Counted from the first letter of the stretch, positions 4,361-27,660 are shown. The stretch: DNA of 32,000 nucleotides from Telmatocola sphagniphila (GCF_018398935.1 NZ_CP074694.1:1560001-1592000), one strand, 5' to 3'. The notes: generated by a model not told the origin, from the letters alone. Numbers and translations: made by a program.

Positions 4361-4378
4361 ATTCTCTGACAACTCTGT

Positions 4379-6243: not shown

Positions 6244-6280
6244 CTTCTCCCACGCTATGCTTTTTGTGCGCCGTCGAGGA

Positions 6281-8707: not shown

Positions 8708-8758
8708 CTCCTAGGAACGAAACGGGAGGAGCCGCATCGTCTGAAAAACAAAAATTCT

Positions 8759-8772
8759 TTAAATTATTGTCA
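8759..8772 (-). promoter_or_regulatory. Shared 14-nt upstream motif, copy 2 (TTAAATTATTGTCA)
   Basis: Identical to 4347-4360. It lies 52-65 nt upstream of the tyrosine-kinase gene start, inside an AT-rich intergenic region. Confidence 0.35.
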
Positions 8773-9073
8773 TCGAATGGGGCGAGCCATTCAAGCAAAT
8801 TCTACTCTGGTAGCAATATCCCAAATGGTCTCAGTTCCGATTTGCGCGAATTTCGTCTAAAAATAGTGTTTTTTACTTACAAATGCACTTCGAAATATAT
8901 GAAAATCACCAAATATAGCTTTTCAGACCAGTCTGCTTGTCGATTAGATCGGGTTCAACAAAGTTTGAGACTTTTCAAATATCAACTTGATTCAGAAGGT
9001 TGGACGATTAAAAGATCATTGAGCTGAGCAGTTTCTCTAAGCATGGTTTCTCGGCCGGAAGTAGCGAAAGATC

Positions 9074-10570
9074 TTATTTCTGCTTGGGGATCTCATTCAA
9101 AGTATAATAGGCTTTTTTATGAAGCAATTTCTCCCGCTCGGCTGACGTCAGGCCGTCCAAGTCAAAATCGTACACATGACCTGGAATCAATTTGTCCAGT
9201 TTCAATTGAACCGTTTTCCGATCTTCCGAAAGTTCAAGGTTTTTCACCACGGGAGTAGTCTGATCGATTTCAGGACCGCCGTAGCCCGCATGATAAGGGT
9301 GCGTGAAAGTTGAGATTTTGTAGGACTTCGGATCCAACGCTTTCACAGATTCCAACGCTTTTGTAAACGCGATCTGGAATCCTTCCGGAGTGATGGTGAT
9401 TTTCTTTATTTCGAACGGCATTTTCCCGTTCCAGTCGATCCGCTCTAGGGCGAAGGGTTTAACGCCGCGAACTGGCCAACCGCGGTTCGTTCCGCCGCAA
9501 AGAAGGTTCCCTTCCTCCGTAAAAATCACGTTAAGGATGCCGGTTGAAAGCCCCTCTCGGAAGGGATAGCAGGCACCTTGCCAGACCCCATTTACCTGTT
9601 CGGTAGTCGCTCGCATGATGATCGAGAGCGTATAGTCCCCGAGAAAAATTTGATCCTCAAACGGGCCGAATTTCCCTTTACTATGGTTTACTGTGAAACC
9701 CGTAATCGAACGCCCCATTCGAATATAAGGAAACACCACGGCGTATGGGACAAGTTGTTTGACACGCTCTTTCTCGATGATAATTTTGGAGCCCGATTTG
9801 GGCTCCTCGGGAACGGGCCCCATCTCCGGGGTGTACTTGTACCAGTTAAAGCTCGCGGGATGTCCATGAAAGCTACCGGGTGTAATTGCTTTCAAACTGT
9901 TTGAACAGTTCCAGGGGCCCTGGCTTTCGATGTAGAAGAGGGCGCCCTGTTCATTCGGTCCTATCCCGGCCGGACTGCGTAAGCCACTGGCAATCGCCCG
10001 AGTTTTTCCCTCAGGAGCGATCTGCATAGCAAAACCGCGAAAGAGGGCGTGCGATTCATACGAATACGATAATCCTAATGCAACATAGAGATTGCCTTTG
10101 TCATCGAATTTGGAGCCGAAGGCATACTCGTGATAGTGCGAATATCCCCACGCATCAGAAATAGTTTCGAAGCGATCGGCCTTTCCTCTGTGTTTCGTGT
10201 CGCTGACTTTCGTTACCTCGCAACTTTGCGTCACATAAAAAGCACCGTCCTTGTAAGCAAGGCCGAAAATCTCATCCAATCCCGTCGCGAAGAGCCGGTA
10301 ACTGGGGTTCGGTTTCTTCTGATCGACACCGCTCACTATATAAATTTCGCCGTGACGAGTGCCGACTGCTATTTTGCCGTCCGGTAACGCGCAGAAGGCC
10401 CCGGCTTCGATCACCAATTCCTGCGGGATCGGAAGATTTACGATCGGATAGTATTCCCGTTCGCGATCCTCTGTACCCCAGCGAGCACCCACATCCTCAG
10501 CGCGAGTTGTGCCGAAACAACTGAGGAGTATGCAAATTATCGTCAAACCCAGCTTATTTGAGCAATTCAT
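9074..10570 (-). CDS. Secreted beta-propeller protein, PQQ/sorbosone-dehydrogenase-like ('putative membrane-bound dehydrogenase' domain of PVC bacteria)
   Basis: Repeated propeller-blade patterns (GLAYKDGAFYVTQ, GNLYVALG, GALFYIESQGPW, GNLLCGGTNRGW). The signal peptide MNCSNKLGLTIICILLSCFGTTRA begins at ATG 10570. The track start at 10609 adds 13 poorly fitting residues. Family assignment is from memory of the motif style, not a search. Confidence 0.7.
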   Translation of the reverse strand: MNCSNKLGLTIICILLSCFGTTRAEDVGARWGTEDREREYYPIVNLPIPQELVIEAGAFCALPDGKIAVGTRHGEIYIVSGVDQKKPNPSYRLFATGLDEIFGLAYKDGAFYVTQSCEVTKVSDTKHRGKADRFETISDAWGYSHYHEYAFGSKFDDKGNLYVALGLSYSYESHALFRGFAMQIAPEGKTRAIASGLRSPAGIGPNEQGALFYIESQGPWNCSNSLKAITPGSFHGHPASFNWYKYTPEMGPVPEEPKSGSKIIIEKERVKQLVPYAVVFPYIRMGRSITGFTVNHSKGKFGPFEDQIFLGDYTLSIIMRATTEQVNGVWQGACYPFREGLSTGILNVIFTEEGNLLCGGTNRGWPVRGVKPFALERIDWNGKMPFEIKKITITPEGFQIAFTKALESVKALDPKSYKISTFTHPYHAGYGGPEIDQTTPVVKNLELSEDRKTVQLKLDKLIPGHVYDFDLDGLTSAEREKLLHKKAYYTLNEIPKQK

Positions 10571-12878
10571 AGGTGATACTCTTTTTGGTTGTGCCTTCGG
10601 AAAGCTCAAATTTCAGAAGCAACTCTGAAGTCTTAGCAGGAGTCTGTAAAGATCGAACGAGCGTTTCACAATTGGGAATGACGATACGGATCTCCCCATT
10701 TTTAAAGGAGTCTTGCGATTCTTTTTCGATGACTCCGGTGAGTGCTCGGAACCAGATTGTCTGATGGTTAGGACTTTTGAAAATGAATTGTCGTTCCAGT
10801 TTTGTTGCTTGTTTCCCCGTAACAACCTGCGAGCGATCGGCAATTTCTAGCTGATCGATACGATACAAGAACGTTGGGATATCCTTGTCGTCCAGTTCGT
10901 AACCTTTGAACTGATACCCACGGTTTTTGGGATAGAGGGGATCTGGTGAAATCGGCTGTTCCCGGGTCGTCAGTGGAATCATTGGCCAGGGACTTTTCTC
11001 ATTCTCCAATTTGTAAAACGAGAGATCCTGGCTTAGCTGCACCGGCCGACTCGCTGGATTGAAGGCTCCGGAACCCTGCCCTCCTCGGTCCACGCGAATG
11101 TAATCGCCTTTCCAGAGTGCAGTGAGCGTCCCCGTTTCGGCATTAAAAGCATAATGGAGTTTCTCGGGGAACCCCACCGCTATTCCCCGATAGCCCGCGA
11201 CACTACTGCGCCCTCGATATGTTCTCGTGGCAGTGCCAACAGATAGCTTTGTCTCGGGCGTTTGAAGGCCAGAGGGGTTCGGGGCCGATGTTCCGAGCGA
11301 GAGGTAATACCAAATGGCTTCAATTTGTCGATCGGTATCTCCATGAAGAATTGTCTGTTGAGCGGCCTTCCCCCCCGGCCAGGAATCCGGCATTACAATG
11401 CGCGGTCGATAAACTCCCGGAGCTTTCAGAAACTGATAAAACCAATTTGGTTGTAGCCTTTCCGTGGAGGTCATCAACTCCATGCCATTTTGCCCTTCCA
11501 TGGAAATCGTTTTTCCGTTGACATAATGGCAGGAAATGCAATACAGCCCTTTATCCCCCATCAGTCCACGGCCCGCATCTCGCATCACCTCGGATCGCTT
11601 TCGCTCCGCCTCCTCCTCGCTCTCAGGATTCGGTAGAGAAAATTTGATGCTGGGAATTCGATCCTCTTTGGAAATCAATTCGGGGAGATGGCGTAACTGA
11701 GCTTCGCCGAACTGCGGCATTCGAGTTAACATGTAGGGTCGAACGGATTCGCCATCGAAGAGCACTTTTTTCAGCCATACCGCTTGGAGCTTCGCCCCCA
11801 CCAGTGTCAGAGGCGGCGGAATTCGGGCTTCCTCACCAAGGTTCTTAGCTGAGGTTTGAAAATAGGCATTTCGTTCGTTGGAAATTCCACCAAAATTGTC
11901 GCGACTATGGCAGGCGATACAGTTAAATGTTGTGAAAGTGAGAGCAACTTTTGCTGAGTCACTTGCAGGTACCGGCTTTCGCAAAGCTGCACGAATAGCC
12001 CGCAGTTGCGATTCTTCGAGATCGAATCGAGGGCTATTAGTTGTGTTGGAGTCCAGACAGCCCCGATCTAAATTCACCTTTGCAAGATCGCCCTTTAAAG
12101 CATGTGGAACTACTCCCTCCAGCGAATGGCAAGCGGAACACTGGAATTGTTGAAAGTATTTTTTGCCCGACTCCACCAAATCCGCTTTCGGCTCGAGAGG
12201 TTTTTCAGCCAAGTTCGTATTTTTCAGCAAATAACCCGCAATCCAAACTGCCTCCTGAGGAGTCAACTTCATATCGGGCATCCGCCCAGCCGGCCGGATT
12301 TTCAACGGCTGAAACAGAAACTCCGTTAGTGAGTTCAAGCTATATTTGGAGGTTAGATGGCCTAGCGAAATGGCTCCGTCCACTGGCAATTCTTTGCCAT
12401 TCTCCTCACGCGGGGCATGGCAGGCCACACAGCCAATCGTATGAAAAAGGTTTTTTCCGCGGGCGTCGTCACTTGGTTGCGATTGCTGGAGCGACCATTT
12501 TGAAGTGGACTGAGCAATCAGGAAGTGTAATAGGGATTCGGCAATCTGCTTGCGCTGCGATTCGGGTGCCTGGTTCAAAACATTCGGCATCAGAGAGCCT
12601 GAATGGCTCGCGCCAGGCGACAGTAAAAATTTCTTTAAATAATCCGGGGAGATTCGCGAGCCAACGTCCTTGAGATCCGGTGCTTTGCGCTCAATTGGAA
12701 GGTCGCCCTGCGAACGCGTATGACAGGCCAGACAACGCAATTCTCCCAGAAGTAATTCCCCTAACTGCAACTCCGAGAGAGGATGACTTCGCGAGACACC
12801 GACTAGTACGGGGGAAGCCTTTGCCGAGAAACAGCAGCAGAGATAGCTCAGACAGAGAAAAAATCGCAGAAATGGCAT
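10554..12878 (-). CDS. Five-heme c-type cytochrome domain protein with heme-free C-terminal domain
   Basis: Five CxxCH motifs (CLACH, CVACH, CSACH, CIACH, CISCH). Four of the five are followed ~45-65 residues later by an MP-containing segment (LMPN, RMPD, RMPQ, VMPD), as in class I cytochrome c modules. The signal peptide MPFLRFFLCLSYLCCCFSAKA begins at ATG 12878 (track TTG start 12911). The last ~240 aa have no heme motif. The stop overlaps the downstream gene start by 17 nt. Confidence 0.8.
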   Translation of the reverse strand: MPFLRFFLCLSYLCCCFSAKASPVLVGVSRSHPLSELQLGELLLGELRCLACHTRSQGDLPIERKAPDLKDVGSRISPDYLKKFLLSPGASHSGSLMPNVLNQAPESQRKQIAESLLHFLIAQSTSKWSLQQSQPSDDARGKNLFHTIGCVACHAPREENGKELPVDGAISLGHLTSKYSLNSLTEFLFQPLKIRPAGRMPDMKLTPQEAVWIAGYLLKNTNLAEKPLEPKADLVESGKKYFQQFQCSACHSLEGVVPHALKGDLAKVNLDRGCLDSNTTNSPRFDLEESQLRAIRAALRKPVPASDSAKVALTFTTFNCIACHSRDNFGGISNERNAYFQTSAKNLGEEARIPPPLTLVGAKLQAVWLKKVLFDGESVRPYMLTRMPQFGEAQLRHLPELISKEDRIPSIKFSLPNPESEEEAERKRSEVMRDAGRGLMGDKGLYCISCHYVNGKTISMEGQNGMELMTSTERLQPNWFYQFLKAPGVYRPRIVMPDSWPGGKAAQQTILHGDTDRQIEAIWYYLSLGTSAPNPSGLQTPETKLSVGTATRTYRGRSSVAGYRGIAVGFPEKLHYAFNAETGTLTALWKGDYIRVDRGGQGSGAFNPASRPVQLSQDLSFYKLENEKSPWPMIPLTTREQPISPDPLYPKNRGYQFKGYELDDKDIPTFLYRIDQLEIADRSQVVTGKQATKLERQFIFKSPNHQTIWFRALTGVIEKESQDSFKNGEIRIVIPNCETLVRSLQTPAKTSELLLKFELSEGTTKKSITYELLK

Positions 12879-13251
12879 CGCAGCTGAACTCCTCAAAGAG
12901 CCGTCACTCAACTCAGCGATTAATAAAGTAATGGATTAAACCATAGCCAAGCACGAAATCTAGTAGGAATTTCGAATTATCCACGGTAGCAATTGCACGA
13001 ACCTCCCCCCGAGTTTCATTTCTTGCTGGCAGAGCCTGAAGGCAGTTCAAGAAATCGTTTCCTTACCCCGGGAAGGTGTTTGTCTGGTTTTGAGGATTAA
13101 AGCGCAAGTGTCGATTAGCACTGGGGGAGCCTGGGATGTGCTCGCGTCACTCTCTGTAACAAGCGGTCTTTTCCGCATAGTCCGAAAAAATTCACCGTCT
13201 TCCGCCATCGGGTTCAAAGAATATAAATAGAGCTACCGACAAATTCATGGT

Positions 13252-13257
13252 TATAAT
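13252..13257 (+). promoter_or_regulatory. TATAAT -10-like hexamer upstream of the kinase/che operon
   Basis: A perfect TATAAT lies 45-50 nt upstream of the TTG start at 13302. There is no convincing -35 (AGAGCT at 17-nt spacing). The assignment is tentative. Confidence 0.25.
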
Positions 13258-13301
13258 CGGATTGCTGGCATTTTCCAGGTACAGCGTTCAGGAGTGAATC
13301 G

Positions 13302-15245
13302 TTGGACGTCACGGCAGCGCATATCGGAGTAGGTCGAGAAGAATTTCTCTCGAACCTCGCCGCCGCGGAATTGCTTAATGAAAGCGATCTCAAGGCACTG
13401 CAGGCAGAAACTCAATCGGATGTGATGCAACTTGCCGATACCGTATTGCGCAAAGGTCTGATCACACCCTACCAACTCGATGCGATCGTCGCCGGTCGTC
13501 CCCAGGACCTAAAAGTCGGCAATTACACCCTGCTATCCAAACTGGGTCAGGGGGGTATGGGGGTAGTCTTTAAAGCGCGCCATCGCCGTATGAAGCGAAT
13601 GGTGGCAATCAAAGTGCTTTCGGCCCAACTCTGTCAGGATGAATCATTCGTCGCACGCTTTCAGCGGGAAGTAGAGACCATCGCCAGGCTGGGCCATCCC
13701 AATATCGTCATGGCGTACGATGCGGACGAAGCCGAGATCGGTCACTTTCTCGTTATGGAATTTGTTGAAGGCCGAGATTTAGCTTCCGAGATCGCCAAGA
13801 AAGGTCCCGCTCAACTTCCTTTAGCAGTGGATTACATCCTTCAGACGGCTCGAGGGCTTGCGTACGCTCATTCGCAGAACATCGTTCACCGCGACATCAA
13901 ACCTCATAACCTCCTTCTCGATGAGCTTGGGGTGGTCAAGGTTACCGATCTGGGGCTGGCGGCCTTATCTTCGGGTGACAAGACTGCGGGTTCGGGTTTA
14001 ACTCAATCGGGCGGAATACTGGGAACTGTCGATTACATGCCCCCCGAGCAGGCCGTCGATTCCGCTTCCATCGACGCCCGGGCCGACATCTACAGTCTGG
14101 GATGCACTCTTTATTATCTTCTGACTGGCACACCCCCCTTCTCTGGCCCCTCCATGATGTCGGTTTTGCTGAAGCATCGGGATGCCCCGATTCCGAAACT
14201 CTCGAGTAAGCATGGGCCGGTTCCTCCCGGCTTAGAAGCGATCTACGAAAAAATGATGGCTAAGTCGGTTGCGACACGCTACCAGTCCATGGGCGAAGTG
14301 ATTCAGGAACTGGAACAGATTCGACTTCAGCTCGGCAGTGTTCCCGGAACAAACATCAGCAGCCAGACGACGGGAATTTTCCACCCCTCCTCGATCTCAT
14401 CCATTGCGATACTTAGACCCGATCAAAAAACGATTGTAGCTCGCCCCGTCGAAAATAGTGCGATCAGCGTACTGGTGGTCGAACCTTCTCGATTACAGGC
14501 CGGGTTCATTCGCAAATATTTGGAACAAAGTGCTATTCGAGTACTCTCCTCGGTAACGACGGGCGCGGCTGCAGAACAGGCGATTCGCATGGAGAAACCC
14601 ACCGCGATTGTATCCAGCCTCTATCTTTCGGATATGACGGGTCTCGAGTTGGCTCAGAAGATTCGGGCCGATTATCCAAGCGCAGCCCCAGGATTCGTGC
14701 TCATTTCCAGTGAATCGGAAAGCAGCGAAGCTCAGCAACTGAGTCAGTTAAATCGCGTTTTGCTTTTGCCGAAGCCCTTCGGGCCGGAGCAGTTGGTGTC
14801 CAGCGTTCACTTGGTCACGGGACAGTCGATATCCGGTCGAGCGGGTTTAGCCCCGCCGATAACCCGGCGAAATAGAGCCGAGCTGCGAGTATTAGTGGTC
14901 GATGACAGCTCCACCGCTCGTGTACATGAACGGATAATCCTGAATCAGCTAGGCTTTACGCAAATTCACGAAGCTTCGGATGGAGCCCAGGCGATCGCGG
15001 CGGCGACTCGAGAAGCTTTCGACCTGATAGTCACCGATTACAATATGCCGCTTTTGGACGGTCGGGCGTTGGTAAGCTATTTGAAGCAAACTACGTCTAC
15101 TGCGGCGGTTCCAATCGTCATGGTCACCACCGAAACGGAAGCTCGAATTTTGGATCCTGTGAGGGAATTGGGCGTAGCGGAGATATTCCCAAAAGCATTT
15201 CCGTCGGATCAGGTAGAAAGCTTGATGAAGAAGTTGTTCGGCTAA
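13302..15245 (+). CDS. Hanks-type Ser/Thr protein kinase fused to a degenerate receiver and a CheY-like receiver (STK-REC*-REC)
   Basis: Kinase motifs: GQGGMGVVF...AIK (ATP site), HRDIKPHNLLL (catalytic loop), DLG, GTVDYMPPE, DIYSLG. REC1 (~aa 388-505) has VVEPS and SSLYLSDM. REC2 (~aa 528-645) has VVDD, TDYNMPLLDG, MVTTE and PKAF, which is very CheY-like. The TTG start at 13302 is supported by AGGAG at 13290-13294 (7-nt spacing). Confidence 0.9.
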   Translation: MDVTAAHIGVGREEFLSNLAAAELLNESDLKALQAETQSDVMQLADTVLRKGLITPYQLDAIVAGRPQDLKVGNYTLLSKLGQGGMGVVFKARHRRMKRMVAIKVLSAQLCQDESFVARFQREVETIARLGHPNIVMAYDADEAEIGHFLVMEFVEGRDLASEIAKKGPAQLPLAVDYILQTARGLAYAHSQNIVHRDIKPHNLLLDELGVVKVTDLGLAALSSGDKTAGSGLTQSGGILGTVDYMPPEQAVDSASIDARADIYSLGCTLYYLLTGTPPFSGPSMMSVLLKHRDAPIPKLSSKHGPVPPGLEAIYEKMMAKSVATRYQSMGEVIQELEQIRLQLGSVPGTNISSQTTGIFHPSSISSIAILRPDQKTIVARPVENSAISVLVVEPSRLQAGFIRKYLEQSAIRVLSSVTTGAAAEQAIRMEKPTAIVSSLYLSDMTGLELAQKIRADYPSAAPGFVLISSESESSEAQQLSQLNRVLLLPKPFGPEQLVSSVHLVTGQSISGRAGLAPPITRRNRAELRVLVVDDSSTARVHERIILNQLGFTQIHEASDGAQAIAAATREAFDLIVTDYNMPLLDGRALVSYLKQTTSTAAVPIVMVTTETEARILDPVRELGVAEIFPKAFPSDQVESLMKKLFG

Positions 15246-15302
15246 ATTGGGCAGGTAAAAAGGATGCGGGGTCAAGGAGGGCAATTTCCGATTATTCACT
15301 GA

Positions 15303-17612
15303 GTGGGTCTAATGACCGAAGTGATGCGCGAGTTCATTCTCGAAACTTTCGAGAATCTGGCACAACTCGACACCAATCTGATCGCGCTGGAGAAATCGCC
15401 AGGCGATCGTTCGACGCTAGCCAGTGTTTTTCGAACCCTGCATAGCATTAAGGGATCCGCCGGCTTCGTCGGATTGCCGAAGTTGCAGGCGATCTCTCAT
15501 GCGGCAGAAAATCTCCTCAGCCGACTCCGATCCGGAGAATTGAAATTCAATCGCCCAATTGCCACCACTCTGCTGGCAGTGGTCGACGCCATCCGACAGA
15601 TTATTTCGTCCATCGAACGGGATCAAACGGAGGGAACCGGCGATTACGCGCATTTGATCGGCGAACTCGATCGGCTTCGAGAAACGGGTGGCACCGTTTC
15701 CCCTGGCCTGGAAACCGAGACGGCTAAAATCCCGTCAGCAGCTCCGACAACTATAATTGCATCCGAGCCAATTTTCGCCGAAGCTGTAGCACATCCTGCT
15801 CCTCCGATTACAGAGTTCTCAGACAATGCATCAACCGGGCCGATTGTTCCCCTCGCGCCCCTCGTTGAGGAAGTGCCGCTCGCCGAAGCCAATTTAGAAG
15901 CGGAAAATACTCCCAAAAATCACGCGACGGTCGCCGACACAACCATTCGCGTCGATGTGGGATTACTCGACAAGCTCATGAATCTGGTCGGTGAACTCGT
16001 ACTGGCTCGCAATCAGATCGTTCAACACAGCAGTGATAATTCGGATCGTGGATTCGTCGGAACGGTTCAGCGCCTCAACCTGCTCACCAGCGAATTGCAG
16101 GCCGGGGTGATGAAGACTCGCATGCAGCCGATCTCCACACTCTGGAGTAAATTCCCTCGCGTGGTTCGAGATCTCGCCGTCGCCTGTGGGAAGAAAGTCC
16201 AGTTAGACATGGAAGGTCAGGGAACGGAACTCGACAAGACTATCCTCGAGGCCATCCGAGATCCTCTCACCCATCTCGTGCGGAATTCGGTCGATCATGG
16301 AATTGAAGCTCCCGAACTCCGGCGCTCCAAAGGAAAATCTCCCGAGGGGCGACTGGTACTTCATGCCTTTCACGAAAGCAGCAAAGTCGTAGTCGAAATT
16401 CGGGATGACGGCGGCGGCATTGATCCCGCCAGAGTACGGGATAAAGCTGTTCGTTCCAAGATTATTACTCCGGAAGAGGCCGCCCGGTTGACCGATCGTG
16501 AAGCGGTAAACCTGATCTTTATGCCCGGATTCAGTACCACCGAGCAGATCACGCAGTTTTCCGGTCGCGGGGTGGGGATGGATGTCGTCCGCACCAATGT
16601 GGAAAAGATAGGCGGCACCGTCGATGTCGATAGTCAGGTCGGTTTAGGTACTACCGTCCGAATGAAGATACCGCTTACATTGGCCATTATCCCTGCCCTT
16701 TCCATAACCTGCGCGGGAGAGAGGTACTGCATTCCTCAGGTGAACCTATTGGAACTGGTTCGGATTGAGGGAGACCAGGTCGCGCGAAAGATTGAAAAGA
16801 TTCACGGTACGCCGGTATTTCGTCTTCGCGGCAACCTGTTGCCCATTGTTTTTTTGCAGGAACAGCTCAAGCTGAGTGCGTGCCGACCAGAGGGATCGGA
16901 TCTATTCATCGTTGTCCTGCAGGTAGAGGACCGACAGCTGGGTTTAGTCGTCGACGCGATCCACGACACCGAAGAAATCGTGGTGAAGCCCCTTCAGAAA
17001 CAGCACAAGTCGATCAGTGTGTTTGCCGGTGCGACCATTATGGGGGATGGTCGGGTTGCTTTGATTCTCGATGTCATGGGTATAGCCGTGAGATCGGGTG
17101 TGCTCTCCGGTCGTCGCGGACGATCCGTCGGAGACGCCAATACAAAATCGGCTTCGGGAGTTCAAACAGTCCCGGTACTCGTCTTCGCGACTTTCGACGA
17201 CAATCGGATGGCCATTCCCCTACCGGCAGTTGCCCGACTGGAAGAATTTAGCATTGCCAATTTTGAAAAAGCCGGGTCGCGTCAGATGATCCAGTATCGA
17301 GGAGAAATCCTGCCACTTCTGGATATTTCACAAGAACTCCGACAGTTCGATTCTCTGGGTCAAAGACCCTCTATTCAGGATGTGACCTACAGCGAACACT
17401 TCAAGAATCGCGAATCGACACCCGTCGTTGTTTGTACCGAGGATGGACAAAATGTCGGCCTGATCGTGGATCGCATTATTGATATTGTCGATGAAGAACG
17501 CACCTCCCAGGCGCGATCTACTCGTCCAGGGATTCTCTTCAACGCAGTTGTTCAGGGCCGGGTTACTGAATTCCCGGATATCTCGGCAATAATCCGATCT
17601 CTGAAAGCATAG
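15303..17612 (+). CDS. cheA: Chemotaxis histidine kinase CheA (Hpt - dimerisation - HATPase - two CheW-like domains)
   Basis: The Hpt motif is FRTLHSIKGSAG. The dimerisation region is TIRVDVGLLDKLMNLVGELVLARNQ. The N, G1 and G2 boxes are HLVRNSVDHGIE, IRDDGGGID and GRGVGMDVV. Two CheW-like segments follow. The start is either GTG 15303 or ATG 15312; TGA at 15300 closes the frame upstream. Confidence 0.93.
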   Translation: MGLMTEVMREFILETFENLAQLDTNLIALEKSPGDRSTLASVFRTLHSIKGSAGFVGLPKLQAISHAAENLLSRLRSGELKFNRPIATTLLAVVDAIRQIISSIERDQTEGTGDYAHLIGELDRLRETGGTVSPGLETETAKIPSAAPTTIIASEPIFAEAVAHPAPPITEFSDNASTGPIVPLAPLVEEVPLAEANLEAENTPKNHATVADTTIRVDVGLLDKLMNLVGELVLARNQIVQHSSDNSDRGFVGTVQRLNLLTSELQAGVMKTRMQPISTLWSKFPRVVRDLAVACGKKVQLDMEGQGTELDKTILEAIRDPLTHLVRNSVDHGIEAPELRRSKGKSPEGRLVLHAFHESSKVVVEIRDDGGGIDPARVRDKAVRSKIITPEEAARLTDREAVNLIFMPGFSTTEQITQFSGRGVGMDVVRTNVEKIGGTVDVDSQVGLGTTVRMKIPLTLAIIPALSITCAGERYCIPQVNLLELVRIEGDQVARKIEKIHGTPVFRLRGNLLPIVFLQEQLKLSACRPEGSDLFIVVLQVEDRQLGLVVDAIHDTEEIVVKPLQKQHKSISVFAGATIMGDGRVALILDVMGIAVRSGVLSGRRGRSVGDANTKSASGVQTVPVLVFATFDDNRMAIPLPAVARLEEFSIANFEKAGSRQMIQYRGEILPLLDISQELRQFDSLGQRPSIQDVTYSEHFKNRESTPVVVCTEDGQNVGLIVDRIIDIVDEERTSQARSTRPGILFNAVVQGRVTEFPDISAIIRSLKA

Positions 17613-17633
17613 ATCGAGTGTTTGAATTCATGA

Positions 17634-18104
17634 TTGGATCTAGCGATGGCGGATGAAAGTCAGTTCTGTACTTTTCGAGTCGGGGATCTGTACCTCGGTG
17701 TGGATGTTATGCGCGTGCAGGAAATCATTCGCTACCAGGAAGTGACCCCGGTGCCGCTCGCTCACCCGGTGGTACGTGGATTGATCAACCTTCGCGGGCA
17801 AATCGTAACCGCCATCGATCTCCGACGTCGACTCGACTTGCCCGCCAAGAAAAATGAAGATTCCGAAGTGAATGTTGTGGTTCAGACGGAAGACGGCGCC
17901 ATCAGCTTACTCGTCGACGAAATTGGTGACGTGCTAACAGTTTCCTCCGAAGACTTTGAACGCCCTCCGGAAAGTCTAAGAGAATCCGCTCGCGAGTTGA
18001 TCCGTGGAACGTATAAGCTTCCCGAGAAATTACTTTTGATTTTGGATGTCGAACAAGCTGTCCTGCTTCCAAATGGCTCTAAGGACATCGAACATAAACT
18101 TTAA
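17634..18104 (+). CDS. cheW: Chemotaxis coupling protein CheW
   Basis: ~150 aa with the CheW pattern (FCTFRVGDLYLGVDVMRVQEI...VPLAHPVVRGLINLRGQIVTAIDLRRRL...LLVDEIGDVL). ATG at 17646 is an alternative to the track's TTG at 17634. Confidence 0.9.
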   Translation: MDLAMADESQFCTFRVGDLYLGVDVMRVQEIIRYQEVTPVPLAHPVVRGLINLRGQIVTAIDLRRRLDLPAKKNEDSEVNVVVQTEDGAISLLVDEIGDVLTVSSEDFERPPESLRESARELIRGTYKLPEKLLLILDVEQAVLLPNGSKDIEHKL

Positions 18105-18144
18105 CCCGAAATTCCATTCTTTTTTTGGATTCGATTGAGGCTAT

Positions 18145-20085
18145 ATGAAAGTGAAACCGAGCGTTCCCTCCAGCAAGCGGAACCCCCTGACGGACCTTCT
18201 GATTGCGACTATGACCGATGTACAAGCCAATATTATGGTGGCCGATGCCGCCATGAACATTGTCTTTATTACTCCAATGGCCCTGAAAACGCTTCGCAAC
18301 ATCGAATCTGAATTGCAGCGAGTGTTCCAGATCTCCGTCGATCAGATCGTGGGGTCCTCGATTCACACTTTCCACAAGGATCCTCGACATGTGGAAAGAG
18401 TGTTGAACAGCCACGATCACATGCCGCATCAAGCCGAGTTCAGTTTCGGTAAAGTGACGTTTCGAGCCAAAGTGAACCTGGTTCGACACCCCTCCACGGA
18501 GGATGTGATCGGCTACGTCGTGGCCTGGGAGGATATCACTCTCCAGCAGAGGCTAGACTTGGACTATGCCGGGCAGATATCGGCGATAAGCAAATCGCAA
18601 GCGGTTGTCGAATTCGAAATGGATGGCTCGATCATTACGGCAAACGATAATTTTCTCAATCTGATGGGTTACACTCTCGAAGAGATTCAAGGCAAATCGC
18701 ATTCGATATTCATCGAGGAATCCCATCGATCGAGCCGAGAGTACCAGGAATTTTGGGAAAGGCTGAGGCGGGGCGAATATCAGGCGGCGGAGTACCTGCG
18801 CATTGGCAAAGGCGGGAAAGAAGTCTGGATTCAAGCCTCCTATAACCCCATCCTGGACAAAAAAGGTAAGCCGTTCAAAATCGTCAAATATGCCACCGAT
18901 ATCACTTGCCAGAAAAATCGAGCTTCGGACATGGCCGGGCAAATCGCGGCGATCCGCAAAGCTCAGGCAGTCATCGAATTCAACATCGACGGCACCATCC
19001 TGGATGCCAACGAAAATTTCCTGAATGTGATGGGCTACCGGCTCGAAGATATTCGCGGTAAGCACCATTCCATTTTCGTCGATCCGACCTACTCCAATAG
19101 TGCGGAATATCGCGATTTCTGGGCTGAGTTGGCATCTGGGGAATCAAAAACCGGCCGATATAAACGATTCAACAAGAACTCCAAAGAAATTTGGATTCAA
19201 GGTTCCTACTTCCCGATCTTGGATCTCAAGGGCCGACCCTTCAAAGTCGTTAAATTCTCCAATGACATTACCAACTTGCGGAAGGTCGAAGATTCCCTTC
19301 GCGGTACAGTGCAAACTCTGGCCAGCGCCTCGGAAGAATTAACCGCCGTCAGTCAGCAGATGGCCTCGACAGCTGAAGAAACTTCCGCGCAAGCAAACGT
19401 GGCCTCCGCCGCGGCAGAGCAGGTCAGCCGGAATGTTTCAACGGTAGCTACCGGCACCCAGGAAATGGGAGCCAGCATCAAGGAAATCGCCAAAAGTGCT
19501 AACGAGGCCGCCCGTGTGGCCACATCGGCAGTCGGCATGGCGGAAAAGACAAATCGAACGATCAATAAGCTCGGAGAATCTAGTACGGAGATCGGGAATG
19601 TCATCAAAGTTATCACGTCGATTGCACAGCAGACCAATCTCCTCGCCTTGAATGCAACTATCGAAGCCGCTCGAGCAGGAGAAGCTGGAAAAGGATTTGC
19701 CGTCGTGGCAAACGAAGTGAAAGAACTGGCCAAGCAGACAGCCCGCGCGACGGAGGATATCAGTCGTAAAATTGAAGCAATTCAGGGAGATACGAAACAG
19801 GCCGTCGATGCCATCGGGCAGATCAGTAAAATTATTTTGCAGATCAACGATATCCAAAATACCATTGCCAGCGCTGTCGAAGAACAGACGGCCACCACTG
19901 CAGAGATTAGCCGTAACGTAAGTGAAGCAGCCAAAGGAAGTAGTGAGATCGCTCACAATATCACCGTTGTGGCTCAGGCGGCCCGGGGCACGACCGAAGG
20001 CGCCTCCCATACGCAAAAATCCGCCGATGCACTTACGAAGATGGCCGTCGATTTACAAAAGATCGTCGCCCAGTTGAAGGCTTAG
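18145..20085 (+). CDS. Soluble methyl-accepting chemotaxis protein, PAS-PAS-PAS-MA architecture
   Basis: I can see no TM helix. There are three PAS-like modules (~aa 15-133, 141-256, 262-378). The MCP signalling domain carries the hairpin tip [31 protein letters not shown] and candidate methylation sites ([16 protein letters not shown]). GAGG lies 4 nt upstream of the ATG. Confidence 0.93.
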
Positions 20086-20152
20086 TGCTATGAATAGAGT
20101 GCACCGGGCTTGCTTTTAGCCAGGCTTGTGGTGATTCAAAAGGGCTTGGCTG

Positions 20153-21232
20153 ATGCGGAAGATTCGTGTACTCGTTGTGGATGATACCGTCGTAATCCGA
20201 CGGGTGGTCAGCGAGGTACTGAATGAAGATCCGGAAATTGAAGTAGTCGGTGTGGCCGCCAATGGGATTATTGCCTTAGCCAAGATGTCGCATCTGACTC
20301 CCGATTTGGTTATCCTCGATGTTGAAATGCCGGAACTGGATGGCCTGCAAACACTCGCTCAATTGCGGCCAGCTTATCCCAGCACTCCAGTAATCATGTT
20401 CAGTGCCCTTACGGAAGCAGGAGCCAGCGCCACACTGGAAGCTTTAGCACTTGGTGCCACAGATTATTTTCCGAAACCTTCCAGTGTCAACGGTCTGGAG
20501 GAATCTCGAAACGTCATACGCAATCGGTTGATTCCCGCCATTAAATCCCTAGCACGGCTGGAACCGATCGCATCTCGGCCCACTCCAACGGTAGTTTCAA
20601 CAGTCTCATCTGAAGCGAATTCCAATAAGACAGAGCCTTTACCAGAGGTGCAGATTTTAGCCATCGGAGTCTCTACAGGCGGGCCGAACGCCCTTCTGGA
20701 GTTATTTCAGTCTTTCCCCTCCGATTTTCCCGTTCCGATCGTTATCGTTCAGCACATGCCGCCGATGTTCACCAAGATGCTGGCCGAACGGTTGACGACG
20801 AATTCCCGCATTAGAGTCTCCGAAGCGCAACATGGTCATCCGCTGGTGACCGGCCACGCTTTAATCGCGCCAGGAGACTATCACCTGACCCTGCGAAAGA
20901 TGGGACTGAAGGTGTTCGCGGAACTGAATCAAAATCCCCCGGAGAACTCCTGCCGTCCCGCTGTCGATCCTTTGTTCCGGTCCGTGGCGAGTATTTATGG
21001 TTCTGGGGCTTTAGCGCTCGTCCTCACGGGAATGGGACAAGATGGCTTACGGGGGTGCGAGCAGATTCGAGAAACGGGTGGTCAAATTCTGGTTCAGGAT
21101 GAGGCCAGCAGTGTCGTCTGGGGTATGCCGGGTGCCGTCGCAAAGGCTGGTTTGGCGCACAAGGTGTTGCCCCTCTCCTTGTGCGGAACTGAAATTGTGC
21201 AGCGCGTTAAGGCGAGACGAGGCGGTAGATGA
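20153..21232 (+). CDS. cheB: Chemotaxis response regulator protein-glutamate methylesterase CheB
   Basis: N-terminal REC (VLVVDD, ILDVEMPELDG) plus a methylesterase domain with catalytic-triad contexts GVSTGGP, VQHMP and TGMGQDG. Confidence 0.93.
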   Translation: MRKIRVLVVDDTVVIRRVVSEVLNEDPEIEVVGVAANGIIALAKMSHLTPDLVILDVEMPELDGLQTLAQLRPAYPSTPVIMFSALTEAGASATLEALALGATDYFPKPSSVNGLEESRNVIRNRLIPAIKSLARLEPIASRPTPTVVSTVSSEANSNKTEPLPEVQILAIGVSTGGPNALLELFQSFPSDFPVPIVIVQHMPPMFTKMLAERLTTNSRIRVSEAQHGHPLVTGHALIAPGDYHLTLRKMGLKVFAELNQNPPENSCRPAVDPLFRSVASIYGSGALALVLTGMGQDGLRGCEQIRETGGQILVQDEASSVVWGMPGAVAKAGLAHKVLPLSLCGTEIVQRVKARRGGR

Positions 21233-22044
21233 CCGATTCCGCTTTTGAATTCGCTGCTCGACTCCTTAAAGACCGAGCTGCTATCGTTTTAGAGTCAGAA
21301 AAGCTCTATCTACTCGATGCGAGGGTAACGCCGCTAGCTCAAAAACTCGGATTGAAAACGGCAGAGGAGTATATCCTCCGAATCCAGCAGAGCCGCGACG
21401 AAAATCTGATCCAAAATCTCATTGAAGCCATGGTCACTACTGAGACCATGTTCTTTCGGGACACGATTCCATTTACCACGCTTCACAATCAGGTACTTCC
21501 GAACCTCATTCGAGTTCGCTCAGCAGTTCGAAAATTGAACATCTGGTGTGCGGCCTGCTCCAGCGGCCAGGAACCGTACACCATCGCAATCATAATCAAA
21601 GAATATTTCCCCGAGTTGGCCACCTGGTCGATCAATCTGACTGCTACTGACATCTCCCGGGAGATGCTCAAGCGTTCTGTCGATGGCCTCTACACTCAAT
21701 TCGAATTGAATCGCGGTATGCCTCCTTCTTTGATTCCCAAATATTTTCAGCAGGAAGGGAATGCCTGGAGAGTTGTAGAGCCGATTCGACGCATGATTCG
21801 ATTTGAACCACTGAATCTGGCGATGCCTTGGCCGCCCCAGCCGATTTGGGATTTGATTTTTATGAGAAATGTGATGATTTATTTCGATACGGAGACAAAA
21901 AGGATGATCCTGGGTCGAATTCCATCCGTTCTGGCGCAGGATGGTTTTCTGATTCTGGGGGGTGCGGAGACGACCTTCCACCTGGTGGATAATTTTATGC
22001 GAGCGGAACAGTATTCCAGCGGCTACTATCAAGTCGTTCGCTAA
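21229..22044 (+). CDS. cheR: Chemotaxis protein methyltransferase CheR
   Basis: ETMFFRD followed by the SAM-binding IWCAACSSGQEPYTIAI and LIFMRNVMIYFD. Its ATG overlaps the cheB stop (ATGA, 21229-21232). Confidence 0.93.
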   Translation: MTDSAFEFAARLLKDRAAIVLESEKLYLLDARVTPLAQKLGLKTAEEYILRIQQSRDENLIQNLIEAMVTTETMFFRDTIPFTTLHNQVLPNLIRVRSAVRKLNIWCAACSSGQEPYTIAIIIKEYFPELATWSINLTATDISREMLKRSVDGLYTQFELNRGMPPSLIPKYFQQEGNAWRVVEPIRRMIRFEPLNLAMPWPPQPIWDLIFMRNVMIYFDTETKRMILGRIPSVLAQDGFLILGGAETTFHLVDNFMRAEQYSSGYYQVVR

Positions 22045-22049: not shown

Positions 22050-25000
22050 TCAGCGATTTTCGATGGGCACCTCGCAGAATGTCAGTGCTGCGATGCCGTT
22101 AGTACCTTTCAGTAGAGTCTTCTGGCTCCAGGATTTACTGTCGAGGTAAGTAATGTTTCTGGGGGGAGATGGAGATTTCACTTTCAATACGATCTGCGAT
22201 CCCTTGGCCTCTCCGGCCAGGACTTTGCCCGCTTCTCCCTCCAGGTAGAATTGATTGACCAGGGAAGCCTCCCACTGTATGGGCTGATCGAACTCCAGTA
22301 TCAATTCTTCGGGTGTGCTTCCACGCATCACGCGTTGAAGGTTCGCTGCCGAAATGGCTTGTGGAAACTTCTTGCCATAAAGATCACGCTCCATCAGTGG
22401 GAACAGCAAGCGAGCAAACTCGGCATAACCCGCGGCTGGAAAATGACATCCCCCAGGTGGGTCGATTCCCAATGTTGATTGGACAGAAAGATTTGAGAAG
22501 GCCGATTTCAGTTGCCTCTGAACTTCGCGAAGTCGATTATCCGAGCCATTGATTCCCATGGAGCACGACTTGGGCCAGATTTGAAACAGATAATAGTTCT
22601 GAATGTTCGGATAATCTTCTTTCCACGCACCCGCCAGATTTATGAAGAGCGACCGGTAATTTTCCCAGCCATATTCACCCGTCGGACCATCGGCTCCCTG
22701 GTCATTTTCCCCCTGATGCCAGATGACTGCCCGGATTCCGTGCGTCAGATGGGCTTTTTTGACTCTCCATAACAAACGGCCGTAGAGCGTCGTGAGATTC
22801 TCCGGATTTTTCGCATCCCGCTGATGCTGATCGATTCGGGTTCCACCTACCGCACCGTTGATCAAGAAAACCGGCACCTTTTCAGCTTCCACTAGTCGGC
22901 GACCAAGTTCCATACCCCAATAACCGATTTGAAGCTTTTCGGCATCTCGACTCCGATGAACCGCCCTACCCCATACTGCGACCGGTTCGGGACTTCCCGA
23001 CATGCTGCCGAACGTTCGTATCCAGTCACTGGTGTAGGTCGGTTCTTCCTTGCCAAAGTCGGTCGCCACGGCATTCGACTGCCCCATGATGATAAAGGCA
23101 TCGCCACAGACGATATTGTTGACGGATTCGAGTGTTTTTGATTGGTCCTGGTTTTGGATGCCCAGATCCACTCGGTACTTCACCAAGCCCGCGGGCAATT
23201 TCACAGTGAATGCATAACGATTCTCGCCATTTGGTTTCTGGTTCAGAGTCTCGATCAGGCGATCCTCCGCATACAGCTTTAAAAAGACCGATTCCGCCGA
23301 TTCGGTGAGCTTGCCGTTATAGAACAGAGTTCCCTCATTATTAGGGTTACGAGCATAGAATTGTCCGTTCATAGGCTTCTCTTCCAAATCCGATTTGCGA
23401 TCGATCCAGGCATCCTGTTTCGGTTCCTTCACGGTAATTTGGATAGATTCGCTGGTTTCGGGGCCGCCGTTGTCGAGGGCCAGGTTGATATTAACCACGC
23501 CACTATTATGAGCCCGTTTCAGGATCAAGCGATCGGATCGGATTTCGTGTGTTGTCGCGATGCCGGATACCGTCCAGCGATAGTTCAATTTGTTGGCCCC
23601 GGCTGTTTCCATCGCTAGTGAATTTTGAATATTGGCAACAACTTCGATGCGATCACGGCCATTCCAGTTCGCCACCGACTGAAGTTGAAAGACCGGTTCT
23701 GGAGTTGCTTCCTGAACCTTGACGGGAATTGAAATCGTTTTGATCTGATCAGGATAAATCGCCTTCAATTCCCATTGGAAAGCTGCATCCCCGCGCACGC
23801 GGCCGGCTACGAAAGGAAGTTCGAAACGATCTGTGGCAACTACCCGTTCTTTACCGTTCCGTTTCTCGATCCAGATCAGTTTCTGTGCGCCGCCGGCCTC
23901 AACCCGGATGTTCGCCGTTGTTCCTTCCTGAACATGAATTTCATTGGGAAATACCCTAAACACATTACCTGATTGAACGATGGGACCTACGAGAGTCTGC
24001 GTCGGTTTCTGGTTCTCGTACTGGAGATAAATCCAGTCGGCGGATCGGGCAACCCTCGAGATTCGAACTTCATCGATGGCTCCGACATAATCGTAATTGT
24101 GATACCAGCCGCCAATCCAAAAACGGGAGGGATTTTTTATGTCCAGACGTGGCGAGGAACTGCCTTCCAGCCTTCCATTCAGGTAAATCTTGCCTTGACC
24201 TTTTTCGTACGTGTGAACAACGTGAGTCCATTCCCCCAAGGGGATTTTTGTGTCGCTGTTGACATCCGAAAAATCGCTATCGATATGAAGATGGGGCGGA
24301 CTGCGAAGTTGCATGCGAATTTTGCTGCCCCGTCCTCCGCCTTCATTACCCCAGCCGATAATCGTGGAGTTGGATTTCTCCGGTCGAAACCAAGCTTCAG
24401 TGCTTTGAGAAGAGGATCCGCTGGGATAGGTCGTAATTTTTTCACCTCCGAACAATCCCTGCTGTCCAGAGAAGTATCTGGCGGAACCGATCACACCCGG
24501 AGTCGAACGGGTTCCGGTATCTTTAAGTTTCAAAGTGCAAGCTTCGTCAATCAACGACTCGTCCATGTGCCAGACGCTGACGTAGCCATTACTGGCGTTG
24601 AAAACGGCGGAGCCGTTCGATTCATTTTTGGCATCCGGCTTACCCCAGTAGATTTTGATCTCCTGTCTGACCTGTCCCCGAATTTCTGGAATGCGTACCC
24701 AGATTTGAGCAAGACCCTCTTTGGGATTCCATTCTTCGATTTGATATGCCAGAATCTGACCCGAACTTGTGCTGAATCGCAAATCCTCGCCTTTGGGATG
24801 AGCCTGTTGGAAATCAAAAAAGCTCTTATGCAATCGCACTAAAAGCGGGAACTCTTTCACAGAAGTGGTAACCGGCAGGTTGGCACCTTCGGCGGTAGTG
24901 AGCAGATATATCGATCCGGAATGTTTCCAGGTGGAATACTGAGCCCAGCCGAAATTTGCAAAAACGAGTATGTAAAAGAGAGCGAGTAGAATGAAACGTG

Positions 25001-25076
25001 GCACGGGGGGGAAATATCCTGAGGAATGAATCTCGATTATTCCCAGCATGCTAGCAGTTTCACTGGCATCAATCAA
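22050..25076 (-). CDS. Secreted multidomain protein: DUF2341 - LamG/concanavalin-like - Ig-like repeats - SASA-type (sialate O-acetylesterase-like, SGNH) esterase
   Basis: The N-terminal third has a DUF2341-like segment (EFPLLVRLHKSFFDFQQAHPKGEDLRF...QIWVRIPEI...IYWG). A LamG pattern follows (TEAWFRP...WTHVVHTYEKGQGKIYLNGRL...GAIDEVRISRVARSADWI). The C-terminal part has IIMGQSNA, INGAVGGTRI and VIWHQGENDQ, typical of the SASA/DUF303 esterase family. The start is uncertain: TTG 25076 (track), ATG 25049, or GTG 25004. GTG 25004 gives the best signal peptide, M-PRFILLALFYILVFANFGWA. Confidence 0.8.
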   Translation of the reverse strand: MIDASETASMLGIIEIHSSGYFPPVPRFILLALFYILVFANFGWAQYSTWKHSGSIYLLTTAEGANLPVTTSVKEFPLLVRLHKSFFDFQQAHPKGEDLRFSTSSGQILAYQIEEWNPKEGLAQIWVRIPEIRGQVRQEIKIYWGKPDAKNESNGSAVFNASNGYVSVWHMDESLIDEACTLKLKDTGTRSTPGVIGSARYFSGQQGLFGGEKITTYPSGSSSQSTEAWFRPEKSNSTIIGWGNEGGGRGSKIRMQLRSPPHLHIDSDFSDVNSDTKIPLGEWTHVVHTYEKGQGKIYLNGRLEGSSSPRLDIKNPSRFWIGGWYHNYDYVGAIDEVRISRVARSADWIYLQYENQKPTQTLVGPIVQSGNVFRVFPNEIHVQEGTTANIRVEAGGAQKLIWIEKRNGKERVVATDRFELPFVAGRVRGDAAFQWELKAIYPDQIKTISIPVKVQEATPEPVFQLQSVANWNGRDRIEVVANIQNSLAMETAGANKLNYRWTVSGIATTHEIRSDRLILKRAHNSGVVNINLALDNGGPETSESIQITVKEPKQDAWIDRKSDLEEKPMNGQFYARNPNNEGTLFYNGKLTESAESVFLKLYAEDRLIETLNQKPNGENRYAFTVKLPAGLVKYRVDLGIQNQDQSKTLESVNNIVCGDAFIIMGQSNAVATDFGKEEPTYTSDWIRTFGSMSGSPEPVAVWGRAVHRSRDAEKLQIGYWGMELGRRLVEAEKVPVFLINGAVGGTRIDQHQRDAKNPENLTTLYGRLLWRVKKAHLTHGIRAVIWHQGENDQGADGPTGEYGWENYRSLFINLAGAWKEDYPNIQNYYLFQIWPKSCSMGINGSDNRLREVQRQLKSAFSNLSVQSTLGIDPPGGCHFPAAGYAEFARLLFPLMERDLYGKKFPQAISAANLQRVMRGSTPEELILEFDQPIQWEASLVNQFYLEGEAGKVLAGEAKGSQIVLKVKSPSPPRNITYLDSKSWSQKTLLKGTNGIAALTFCEVPIENR

Positions 25077-25441
25077 AAGCTAAATGGTCGGATTGCAGGA
25101 TTCGGTAAAGGGTTCTCCGCCGGAGTTTCGGGTTCCTTCGGCTTCAGATAATCCTCGGCATTCATCTCTAAGGATCGCAATTTCATCCGGAGTGTCGTTC
25201 GGGAGATTCCCAATAGCTCGCTGGCATGAACTTGATTTCCCTGGACGTGCTTTAAGATCACATCCAGAATGGTTCGATCTAACTCATGCGTCAAACGGCG
25301 GTAAAGATCCTTCTCCCCGATTTCCAGCAGATGCTGAATCCGCACGGCCAGATCGCCGAACTTGCCAGTAAAGGAATTCAGCGAAGGCTTTTCCTCGAAA
25401 GGAATCATGTTTTCGTTCATAGCGTTCATTTGTAGCTTCAC
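25073..25441 (-). CDS. Small Fis-family / NtrC-C-terminal-like HTH DNA-binding protein
   Basis: DLYRRLTHELDRTILDVILKHVQGNQVHASELLGISRTTLRMKLRSL matches the Fis/HTH_8 pattern found at the C-terminus of sigma-54 activators. The start is GTG 25441 or ATG 25429 (AGGTGA lies 9 nt upstream of the latter). The gene ends 0-70 nt before the downstream esterase gene, depending on that gene's start. Confidence 0.7.
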   Translation of the reverse strand: MKLQMNAMNENMIPFEEKPSLNSFTGKFGDLAVRIQHLLEIGEKDLYRRLTHELDRTILDVILKHVQGNQVHASELLGISRTTLRMKLRSLEMNAEDYLKPKEPETPAENPLPNPAIRPFSF

Positions 25442-27501: not shown

Positions 27502-27660
27502 CCGCAAGTGAAATCGAATATCGCTCAAAGGCTTCGCAATCTGCCATTGCCCAAGTTTTCTATTTTGCCAAATCTAAAATTACCGATTACTAATGATGTC
27601 TGCTAAATCCATTTGCCGATGTTTCCTGGACTACCGTTCTTGCGGAAAATAGGGAAGGTA

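Follow-up and report, generated by a model that had tools for sequence, protein, structure and literature searches.

A chemosensory (Che) operon headed by a Ser/Thr protein kinase gene occupies positions 13302-22044 of a 32,000 nt stretch of the Telmatocola sphagniphila genome (GCF_018398935.1, NZ_CP074694.1:1560001-1592000), which we call the window and whose positions we count from its first nucleotide. Its six genes encode a PknB-like Hanks Ser/Thr kinase (STK) followed in the same polypeptide by a pseudo-receiver (REC1*, or REC* in compound names) and a canonical receiver (REC2); CheA; CheW; a soluble methyl-accepting chemotaxis protein with PAS modules (PAS-MCP); CheB; and CheR. The operon is conserved in Planctomycetia with its kinase gene attached, and we consider it probable, with real room for doubt, that phosphorylated CheA (CheA~P) controls the kinase by way of Asp579 in REC2. 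This phosphotransfer is the reading that best fits the genomic anatomy described below; an initial annotation of the same DNA had already suggested it, and the mechanism proposed there appears plausible, with better comparative support now than it had then.

Linkage of kinase and cheA in Planctomycetia

A search over 5.8 billion proteins with the kinase as query returned more than 100 full-length homologues, 628-698 aa long and 52-67% identical, whose Pfam content is the same, with named members from Gemmataceae, Pirellulales, Planctomyces, Lacipirellula and Anatilimnocola. Genomic loci were gathered by scanning one genome per species for the pattern GHPNIVMA, which gave 80 loci (labelled L001 etc.), approximately 55 of them family members and none from the Telmatocola genome, although the window contains the pattern, and their open reading frames (ORFs) were annotated by phmmer using the window Che proteins together with CheY and CheX of Lacipirellula as queries. 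The kinase gene adjoins cheA in 50 of 58 loci, spanning Gemmatales, Pirellulales and Planctomycetales, and the remaining 8 contigs are too short to tell, ending just after the kinase. Most linked loci have cheA directly downstream of the kinase gene on the same strand; in six loci the che operon is convergent with the kinase gene and has cheA at its far end (L045, L047, L051, L054, L055, and that clade generally where the contig is long enough). The usual order is STK, cheA, cheW, PAS-MCP, (cheY), cheB, cheR, (cheX), with parentheses marking genes that only some clusters possess. Linkage of this extent is far beyond chance, and the neighbourhood search suggested with the initial annotation has in this respect returned a strongly conserved adjacency. 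Precomputed Pfam annotation of four of the loci (L001, L002, L083, L084) gives the same gene picture, and neither their 10-kb flanks nor the 32-kb window contain flagellar or pilus genes. Flanking genes vary by locus, and clustering of upstream ORFs found none that recurs in more than two loci, from which it follows that the six to eight genes listed above are the unit.

Several observations concern individual loci. Titles of the metagenome-assembled genomes (MAGs) that contain L003, L027, L051 and L013 say Bacteroidales, Alcaligenaceae, Bryobacteraceae or Kuenenia; these labels are probably the product of mis-binned contigs and not of occurrence outside Planctomycetia. Anatilimnocola floriformis encodes two paralogous STK-REC*-REC2 proteins (P0085, P0109) on the same contig, one of which (L002) belongs to a cluster without CheY and CheX whose MCP is split into two ORFs. 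Genes with HisKA/HATPase_c domains are found 1-5 kb upstream of the kinase at L001:5079-6263 (-) and L083:7748-9109 (+); the family as a whole does not conserve them, and the window has none.

Kinase and receiver domains

Pfam matches Pkinase to residues 75-295 of the fusion protein at 1.4e-51 (175.8 bits, cutoff 31.7), and the expected motifs follow in order: GQGGMG at residue 82, Lys104, Glu123, HRDIKPHN at 196, DLG at 216 in the DFG position and PPE at 247. The best NCBIfam model is PknB_PASTA_kin, which scores 306 bits, below its cutoff, and covers the kinase part only. A Foldseek search of the PDB aligns the kinase domain with Mycobacterium tuberculosis PknB at 37-40% identity and a template modelling (TM) score of 0.8-0.9, up to 0.91; the same search returned isolated kinase domains only, and no solved STK-receiver protein was among its matches. 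An AlphaFold 2 (AF2) model of the whole protein, with a predicted local distance difference test (pLDDT) score of 85.9, contains four folded modules at residues 12-70 (N-terminal, helical), 75-343, 389-506 and 529-646, and disordered linkers at 348-384 and 511-520.

Conservation counted over 120 STK-REC*-REC2 homologues is stringent in the catalytic site, where Lys104, Glu123, His196, Arg197, Asp198, Asn203, Asp216 and Gly218 are invariant; the activation loop keeps Thr234 in all 120 and Thr242 in 119. Pfam Response_reg matches two further stretches of the protein, the better at residues 530-639, and these two receivers differ sharply in their residues. REC1* retains Glu394-Pro395 and Lys491-Pro492 in every homologue, and the position equivalent to the phospho-acceptor is occupied by Ala (91), Ser (21) or Thr (8) and never by Asp; lacking the receiver quintet, it is on its residues a pseudo-receiver. 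REC2 has the entire quintet of acidic pair, acceptor Asp, Thr/Ser and Lys, with Asp535, Asp579, Thr609 and Lys631 present in 120/120 homologues and Asp534 in 119. Each of the residues singled out by the initial annotation (Asp534/Asp535, Asp579 within TDYNMPLLDG, Thr609, Lys631, and His47 of CheA) was found in the sequence where it had been placed.

REC2 is not a CheY by the usual marks: it is fused to a kinase, it has neither the aromatic switch residue nor Lys-Pro, and it scores 84.2 bits on the CheY equivalog NF007901, whose cutoff is 189. That model is still the best receiver-family match of REC2, and a genuine CheY encoded in one of the clusters scores 88 bits on it, close to the value for REC2. 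Taken together these residues and scores make REC2 a strongly constrained, phosphorylatable receiver that is not a CheY orthologue. We also considered whether REC2 could be a recent CheY duplicate and rejected this, as its identity to the cluster CheYs (~29%) brings it no closer to them than to E. coli CheY.

When REC1* alone was searched against 1.84 billion representatives, 169 of them matched at E<=1e-10, mostly fragments or members of the STK-REC*-REC2 family. The next-nearest group consists of tandem receiver-receiver proteins of ~265 aa that match in two stretches at 25-32% identity (P0379, P0391-P0395 etc.), from which the REC*-REC2 module may have evolved.

The CheY/CheX branch and its losses

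Thirty-two of the clusters are complete, with space left downstream of cheR. In 20 of these a full-length STK-REC*-REC2 is accompanied by CheY (121-150 aa, encoded between the MCP gene and cheB) and by CheX (encoded after cheR); 8 have the full-length kinase without CheY and CheX (the window, L002, L006, L008, L020, L037, L041, L048); and 4 encode a kinase of 500-535 aa that ends in REC1*, without REC2, alongside CheY and CheX (L045, L047, L051, L055, to which the truncated L044 can be added). CheY and CheX are present or absent jointly in every cluster, and no cluster lacks both REC2 and CheY. A pattern in which either REC2 or the CheY/CheX pair is lost, never both, fits two alternative receivers for one phosphoryl donor.

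The in-cluster CheYs share 60-75% identity with one another and 38% with E. coli CheY, and they keep DWNMP, Thr87, Tyr106 and Lys109-Pro. Since CheY and CheX occur in 20 of the 28 clusters with a full-length kinase (~70%), the ancestral system looks two-branched on these gene contents, with a CheY/CheX branch beside the kinase branch, and the window would represent a derived, reduced state. The initial annotation had described REC2 as the only CheY-like output; this holds in the window, where REC2 is the sole canonical receiver besides that of CheB, but does not extend to the family, most of whose full-length kinases are accompanied by a true CheY. In a neighbour-joining tree built from the kinases, clusters without CheY and CheX are dispersed: they form one member of the sister pairs L002/L062, L008/L004, L037/L026 and L030/L032 (the second of each pair has CheY and CheX) and recur at L020, at L041, in the window and in a Fuerstiella clade. 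This distribution implies at least 6 independent joint losses. Repeated joint loss with the rest of the cluster retained in turn suggests that the kinase branch is worth keeping alone.

The REC2-less kinases form one clade (L044, L045, L047, L051, L055), in which the kinase gene lies tail-to-tail with a complete cheA-W-MCP-Y-B-R-X operon, as in L045, where STK occupies 3418-5025 and the che operon 5009-12400 on the opposite strand. Extra CheYs of another type, 24-38% identical to the in-cluster class, are encoded near L006, L029 and L002. At two of these loci, both from MAGs, a second che set lies beside the STK cluster (L006:19214-21700 and L029:788-3360), with an other-type CheY (30-38%), CheA and, in L029, CheW; some of these organisms accordingly have more than one Che system.

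Telmatocola retains the kinase branch only

T. sphagniphila (Gemmatales) is described as non-motile and non-flagellated, while Gemmata and Zavarzinella have flagellated swarmers (PMC3327967); later comparative tables give the same phenotypes and list Limnoglobus and Frigoriglobus as motile (PMC7397252, PMC7534041). CheY and CheX are both present at the loci of motile Gemmata (L012) and Limnoglobus (L007), and non-motile Telmatocola has neither. The closest relative in the collections, L003, whose kinase and CheA are 67% and ~69% identical to those of Telmatocola, retains CheY. With the L003 CheY as query, no Telmatocola protein was among the best 120 matches listed (61-100% identity), where an orthologue would be expected near the top, a divergent copy being possible. 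Remnants of CheY or CheX would have no space in the 67-nt gap between the MCP gene and cheB or in the 5 nt that follow cheR, and tblastn of the window with CheY and CheX queries found none, returning only REC2, REC1* and noise. The missing orthologue and the missing remnants together indicate that the CheY/CheX module was deleted and not moved. Telmatocola keeps the kinase branch only, fully intact. Its retention in a species without flagella speaks for an output that is not flagellar, and in Telmatocola it may govern a process other than motility, e.g. the life cycle with its budding, the formation of stalks and rosettes, or metabolism.

Proposed signalling route and its alternatives

The route that we favour would begin with a cytoplasmic array of PAS-MCP, CheW and CheA, adapting through methylation by CheR and CheB. 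Its PAS domains would sense an intracellular or diffusible cue and thereby set the rate of CheA autophosphorylation on His47, after which CheA~P would most likely donate its phosphoryl group to Asp579 of REC2. Phospho-REC2, acting with REC1*, would then alter kinase activity, probably through changed dimerisation and trans-autophosphorylation of Thr234 as in PknB-type Arg-Asp (RD) kinases, and the part of REC1* would be that of a constitutive module, either structural or for dimerisation; the kinase would go on to phosphorylate Ser/Thr residues of its substrates. In most relatives the same CheA would also feed the stand-alone CheY, which would be reset by CheX and plausibly acts on the flagellar motor.

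A number of observations weigh against this route and temper our confidence in it. The REC2 residue equivalent to Tyr106 of CheY is Ile or Val in all 120 homologues (Ile in the window), and the Lys-Pro cis-peptide motif is absent, Lys631 being followed by Ala in the window and by Pro in 0/120 homologues. The identity of REC2 is ~30% to any CheY (29% to the in-cluster proteins and 31-32% to E. coli CheY). The initial annotation had REC2 aligning almost motif-for-motif with E. coli CheY; this is accurate for the generic receiver pocket, but it overstates the likeness of proteins that are 32% identical and differ at the Tyr106 and Lys-Pro positions. The predicted TM score (pTM) of the AF2 model is 0.59, at which inter-domain geometry is unreliable, and we draw no conclusion from it on docking of receiver and kinase. 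No conserved gene upstream or downstream of the unit presents itself as a substrate candidate. The match between motility and CheY/CheX covers three cultured genera only, MAG genus labels not being phenotypes, and for Telmatocola itself non-motility is a published phenotype only. Finally, because the REC2-less clade stays beside che genes, the link between kinase and Che cannot rest on REC2 phosphotransfer alone.

This last point is also what sustains the main rival, less probable by our estimate than CheA control of the kinase and still to be taken seriously, in which the kinase acts on the Che machinery itself, tuning or switching the array by Ser/Thr phosphorylation of MCP, CheA, CheW, CheB or CheY, with REC2 as a feedback input from CheA. 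In the REC2-less clade STK-REC1* still directly adjoins the che operon, the neighbourhood offers no conserved gene for a substrate, and phosphorylation of histidine kinases and response regulators by Ser/Thr kinases of the eukaryotic-like type (eSTKs) is well documented (PMC12189002). However, a REC2 pocket invariant in 120/120 homologues points to a strongly selected phosphorylation input, and the complementary loss of REC2 and CheY/CheX suggests alternative receivers of one donor. The two schemes are compatible.

The remaining alternatives strike us as improbable. REC2 might be phosphorylated by some other histidine kinase, the adjacency of cheA reflecting co-expression or scaffolding; the HisKA/HATPase_c genes a few kb upstream in L001 and L083 would suit this, as would an identity between REC2 and CheY no higher than that to generic receivers, but no histidine kinase is shared by more than two loci upstream, the window has none, cheA is the invariable neighbour, and the CheY model is what REC2 matches best among receiver families. 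Marginally less probable again is a REC2 that serves as a mere phosphate sink, speeding signal termination for the CheY branch while the kinase is regulated independently. Sink receivers are known in Che systems without CheZ, and most clusters do contain CheY; against this, eight clusters including the window have no CheY and yet an intact REC2, the CheY-bearing clusters already possess a dedicated phosphatase in CheX, and the invariant fusion to an active kinase would go unexplained. We give least credence of all to the Telmatocola operon as a decaying, functionless leftover of flagellar chemotaxis. Its host is non-motile and its CheY and CheX are deleted, but six intact ORFs with every catalytic residue in place, an unremarkable branch length for the window kinase, and a six-gene reduced form that arose and persisted in at least 6 lineages speak against decay. 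Control of the kinase by CheA through Asp579 is thus the reading we retain.

Gene layout and surroundings

The coordinates of the operon and its domains are collected in Table 1. The six genes are co-directional, as first annotated, with intergenic gaps from STK to cheR of 57, 21, 40, 67 and -4 nt (longest-ORF starts), and Pfam and motif reading find all six ORFs intact with all catalytic residues present. The domains that the initial annotation proposed to verify by profile search (Pkinase, Response_reg, Hpt, H-kinase_dim, HATPase_c, CheW, MCPsignal, CheB_methylest, CheR) are all recovered by Pfam. The TTG start of the kinase at 13302 is backed by the N-termini of homologues, which align over their full length, and by AGGAG 8 nt 5' of it. 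The longest cheA ORF begins with GTG at 15303 and encodes 769 aa, whereas the 100% identical T. sphagniphila CheA in the database has 766 aa, so that the real start is probably the ATG at codon 4 (window 15303-15314) and the gap between STK and cheA 66 nt instead of 57. At the far end of the operon the cheR stop lies 5 nt from the stop codon of a convergent gene, which leaves no space there for cheX. A scan for sigma-70 promoters and for terminators gave counts at shuffle, or chance, level.

Table 1. Features of the Telmatocola sphagniphila operon, in window positions
Feature	Position	Strand	Description	Evidence
Upstream intergenic region	12912..13301	+	390 nt, divergent from a cytochrome-c gene; presumed operon promoter region	
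STK-REC*-REC2 gene	13302..15245	+	647 aa; N-terminal helical region, PknB-like Hanks Ser/Thr kinase, pseudo-receiver, canonical receiver	Pfam, motifs, AF2
Kinase catalytic domain	13524..14330	+	residues 75-343; RD kinase; K104, E123, H196-R197-D198, N203, D216-L-G, activation-loop T234	
REC1* pseudo-receiver	14466..14819	+	residues 389-506; E394-P395 in place of the acidic pair, Ser439 at the acceptor position, K491-P492-F493 kept	
REC2 canonical receiver	14886..15239	+	residues 529-646; D534, D535, D579, T609, K631; proposed phospho-acceptor	
cheA	15303..17612	+	P1 Hpt (His47), disordered linker, no P2, P3 dimerisation, P4 ATPase, two CheW-like P5; no fused receiver	
cheW	17634..18104	+	coupling protein	Pfam CheW 8.1e-35
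PAS-MCP gene	18145..20085	+	soluble chemoreceptor; three PAS-like modules and ~260-aa signalling domain	Pfam PAS x2-3, MCPsignal 2.7e-34
cheB	20153..21232	+	methylesterase; N-terminal receiver, acceptor Asp in LVILDVEMP	Pfam Response_reg, CheB_methylest
cheR	21229..22044	+	methyltransferase; 4-nt overlap with cheB	Pfam CheR_N, CheR

The genes downstream of the kinase supply the elements of a Che core. CheA combines the Hpt His (His47) with H-kinase_dim, HATPase_c and a pair of CheW-like domains; CheW is present, as is the signalling domain of an MCP; and adaptation is represented by CheR and by a CheB that scores 404.9 bits on its NCBIfam subfamily model (cutoff 293). The MCP lacks any hydrophobic segment (maximum KD19 1.51) and is accordingly soluble; its signalling domain carries methylation-site-like motifs, and among NCBIfam models the protein comes closest to the aerotaxis transducer Aer2, below cutoff.

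Elsewhere in the window, Pfam detects no further receiver, Che, flagellar or pilus domain in the larger ORFs, and phmmer, applied to every ORF of 50 aa or more, finds no further receiver or Che gene; with the tblastn result these searches agree with the initial statement that the window has no stand-alone CheY, no CheZ, CheC, CheX or CheD and no genes for flagella or pili. Other products of the window are an outer-membrane efflux protein, a Wzz/P-loop protein, glycosyltransferases, a multihaem-type cytochrome c, a Laminin_G/SASA protein, a small HTH_8 protein and a thioredoxin-like protein. Polysaccharide-type genes lie on both sides of the operon (window 4604-8707 (-) and 27613-30050 (+)) and comprise an 808-aa Wzz chain-length determinant fused to a P-loop ATPase, in an architecture like that of bacterial tyrosine (BY) kinases, and three family 4 glycosyltransferases (GT4); no link between them and the Che operon was found in relatives. 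Convergent with cheR, with 5 nt between the stop codons, is a gene pair at 22050-25441 (-) that encodes a 1008-aa protein (DUF2341, Laminin_G_3, SASA esterase) in 4-nt overlap with the end of a 122-aa Fis-type HTH_8 protein.

Comparison with known systems

Our full-text literature search found no Che pathway with a Hanks-kinase output, an earlier mention in a census table being possible, and so agrees with the initial annotation, whose author likewise knew of no characterised example. Whether a cytoplasmic, methylation-adapting array that signals through CheA to a Hanks kinase is indeed an undescribed route, and the first Che pathway with Ser/Thr phosphorylation as output, ancestrally parallel to CheY/CheX and repeatedly the sole output, seems to us an evenly balanced question. 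The outputs described so far for Che pathways that do not serve motility are second-messenger enzymes, transcription factors, histidine kinases and PP2C phosphatases. If the route exists, a Hanks-kinase output would join His-Asp and Ser/Thr signalling in the direction opposite to the usual crosstalk from eSTKs to two-component proteins. The family is widespread in Planctomycetia, and planctomycetes have very large kinomes and unusual cell biology. The natural variants (both branches, kinase branch only, REC2-less kinase) make the hypothesis directly testable, and they give a way of asking what purpose chemosensing with adaptation serves in a non-motile cell.

The closest parallels in overall design are Wsp of Pseudomonas aeruginosa and other pathways of the alternative cellular function (ACF) class, e.g. 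Che3 of Myxococcus and Che3 of Rhodospirillum centenum, in which receptor, CheW, CheA, CheB and CheR likewise drive a multidomain response regulator with an enzymatic or regulatory output, and in which the cluster contains no motility genes. The Telmatocola cluster has its own multidomain response regulator as output, STK-REC*-REC2 being encoded directly upstream of cheA, and the operon belongs functionally with Che-like pathways of alternative output, as the ACF concept defines them. It differs from them in that its output is a Hanks kinase, which is absent from the ACF output list (PMC3447774), and also in that the receiver is C-terminal to the output domain and preceded by a pseudo-receiver, no receiver is fused to CheA, and the receptor is soluble. 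Most planctomycete members of the family, unlike Wsp and the ACF pathways, also keep canonical CheY and CheX, which are typical of flagellar classes, and this hints at flagellar-class descent. Tandem receivers or pseudo-receivers tied to a Che-like pathway, with one domain lacking the acceptor Asp and no kinase fusion, also occur in Myxococcus xanthus as FrzZ and FrzS.

From the side of the kinase, the nearest relatives are M. tuberculosis PknB and related bacterial Hanks kinases, which share with the Telmatocola protein the 37-40% identity given above, the RD class and a conserved activation-loop Thr; this likeness makes activation by dimerisation and trans-autophosphorylation plausible. Unlike PknB, the Telmatocola kinase has no transmembrane segment or PASTA sensor, and its input would instead be tandem receivers fed by a chemosensory histidine kinase. 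Control of Ser/Thr phospho-signalling by receiver Asp phosphorylation is known from REC-PP2C regulators such as PA3346/HsbR of P. aeruginosa (PMC12189002), but the target of the receiver there is a partner-switch PP2C phosphatase or GHKL anti-sigma kinase and no Hanks kinase, and phosphate does not come from a CheA equipped with receptor and adaptation machinery. A 2025 review of phosphorelays covers eSTK phosphorylation of two-component proteins and the REC-PP2C protein PA3346, and no receiver-controlled Hanks kinase (PMC12189002). The gating of a Hanks-type kinase by a phosphorylatable receiver has its precedent in eukaryotes, in the His-Asp phosphorelay to MAPKKK (Sln1-Ypd1-Ssk1 to Ssk2/22 in yeast; Mcs4 in Schizosaccharomyces pombe, PMC3829895). 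The receiver of the eukaryotic relays addresses a separate kinase in trans, whereas in Telmatocola receiver and kinase are one polypeptide with input from a chemoreceptor array, which would, if the proposed phosphotransfer takes place, be a one-polypeptide bacterial counterpart of phosphorelay-to-MAPKKK logic.

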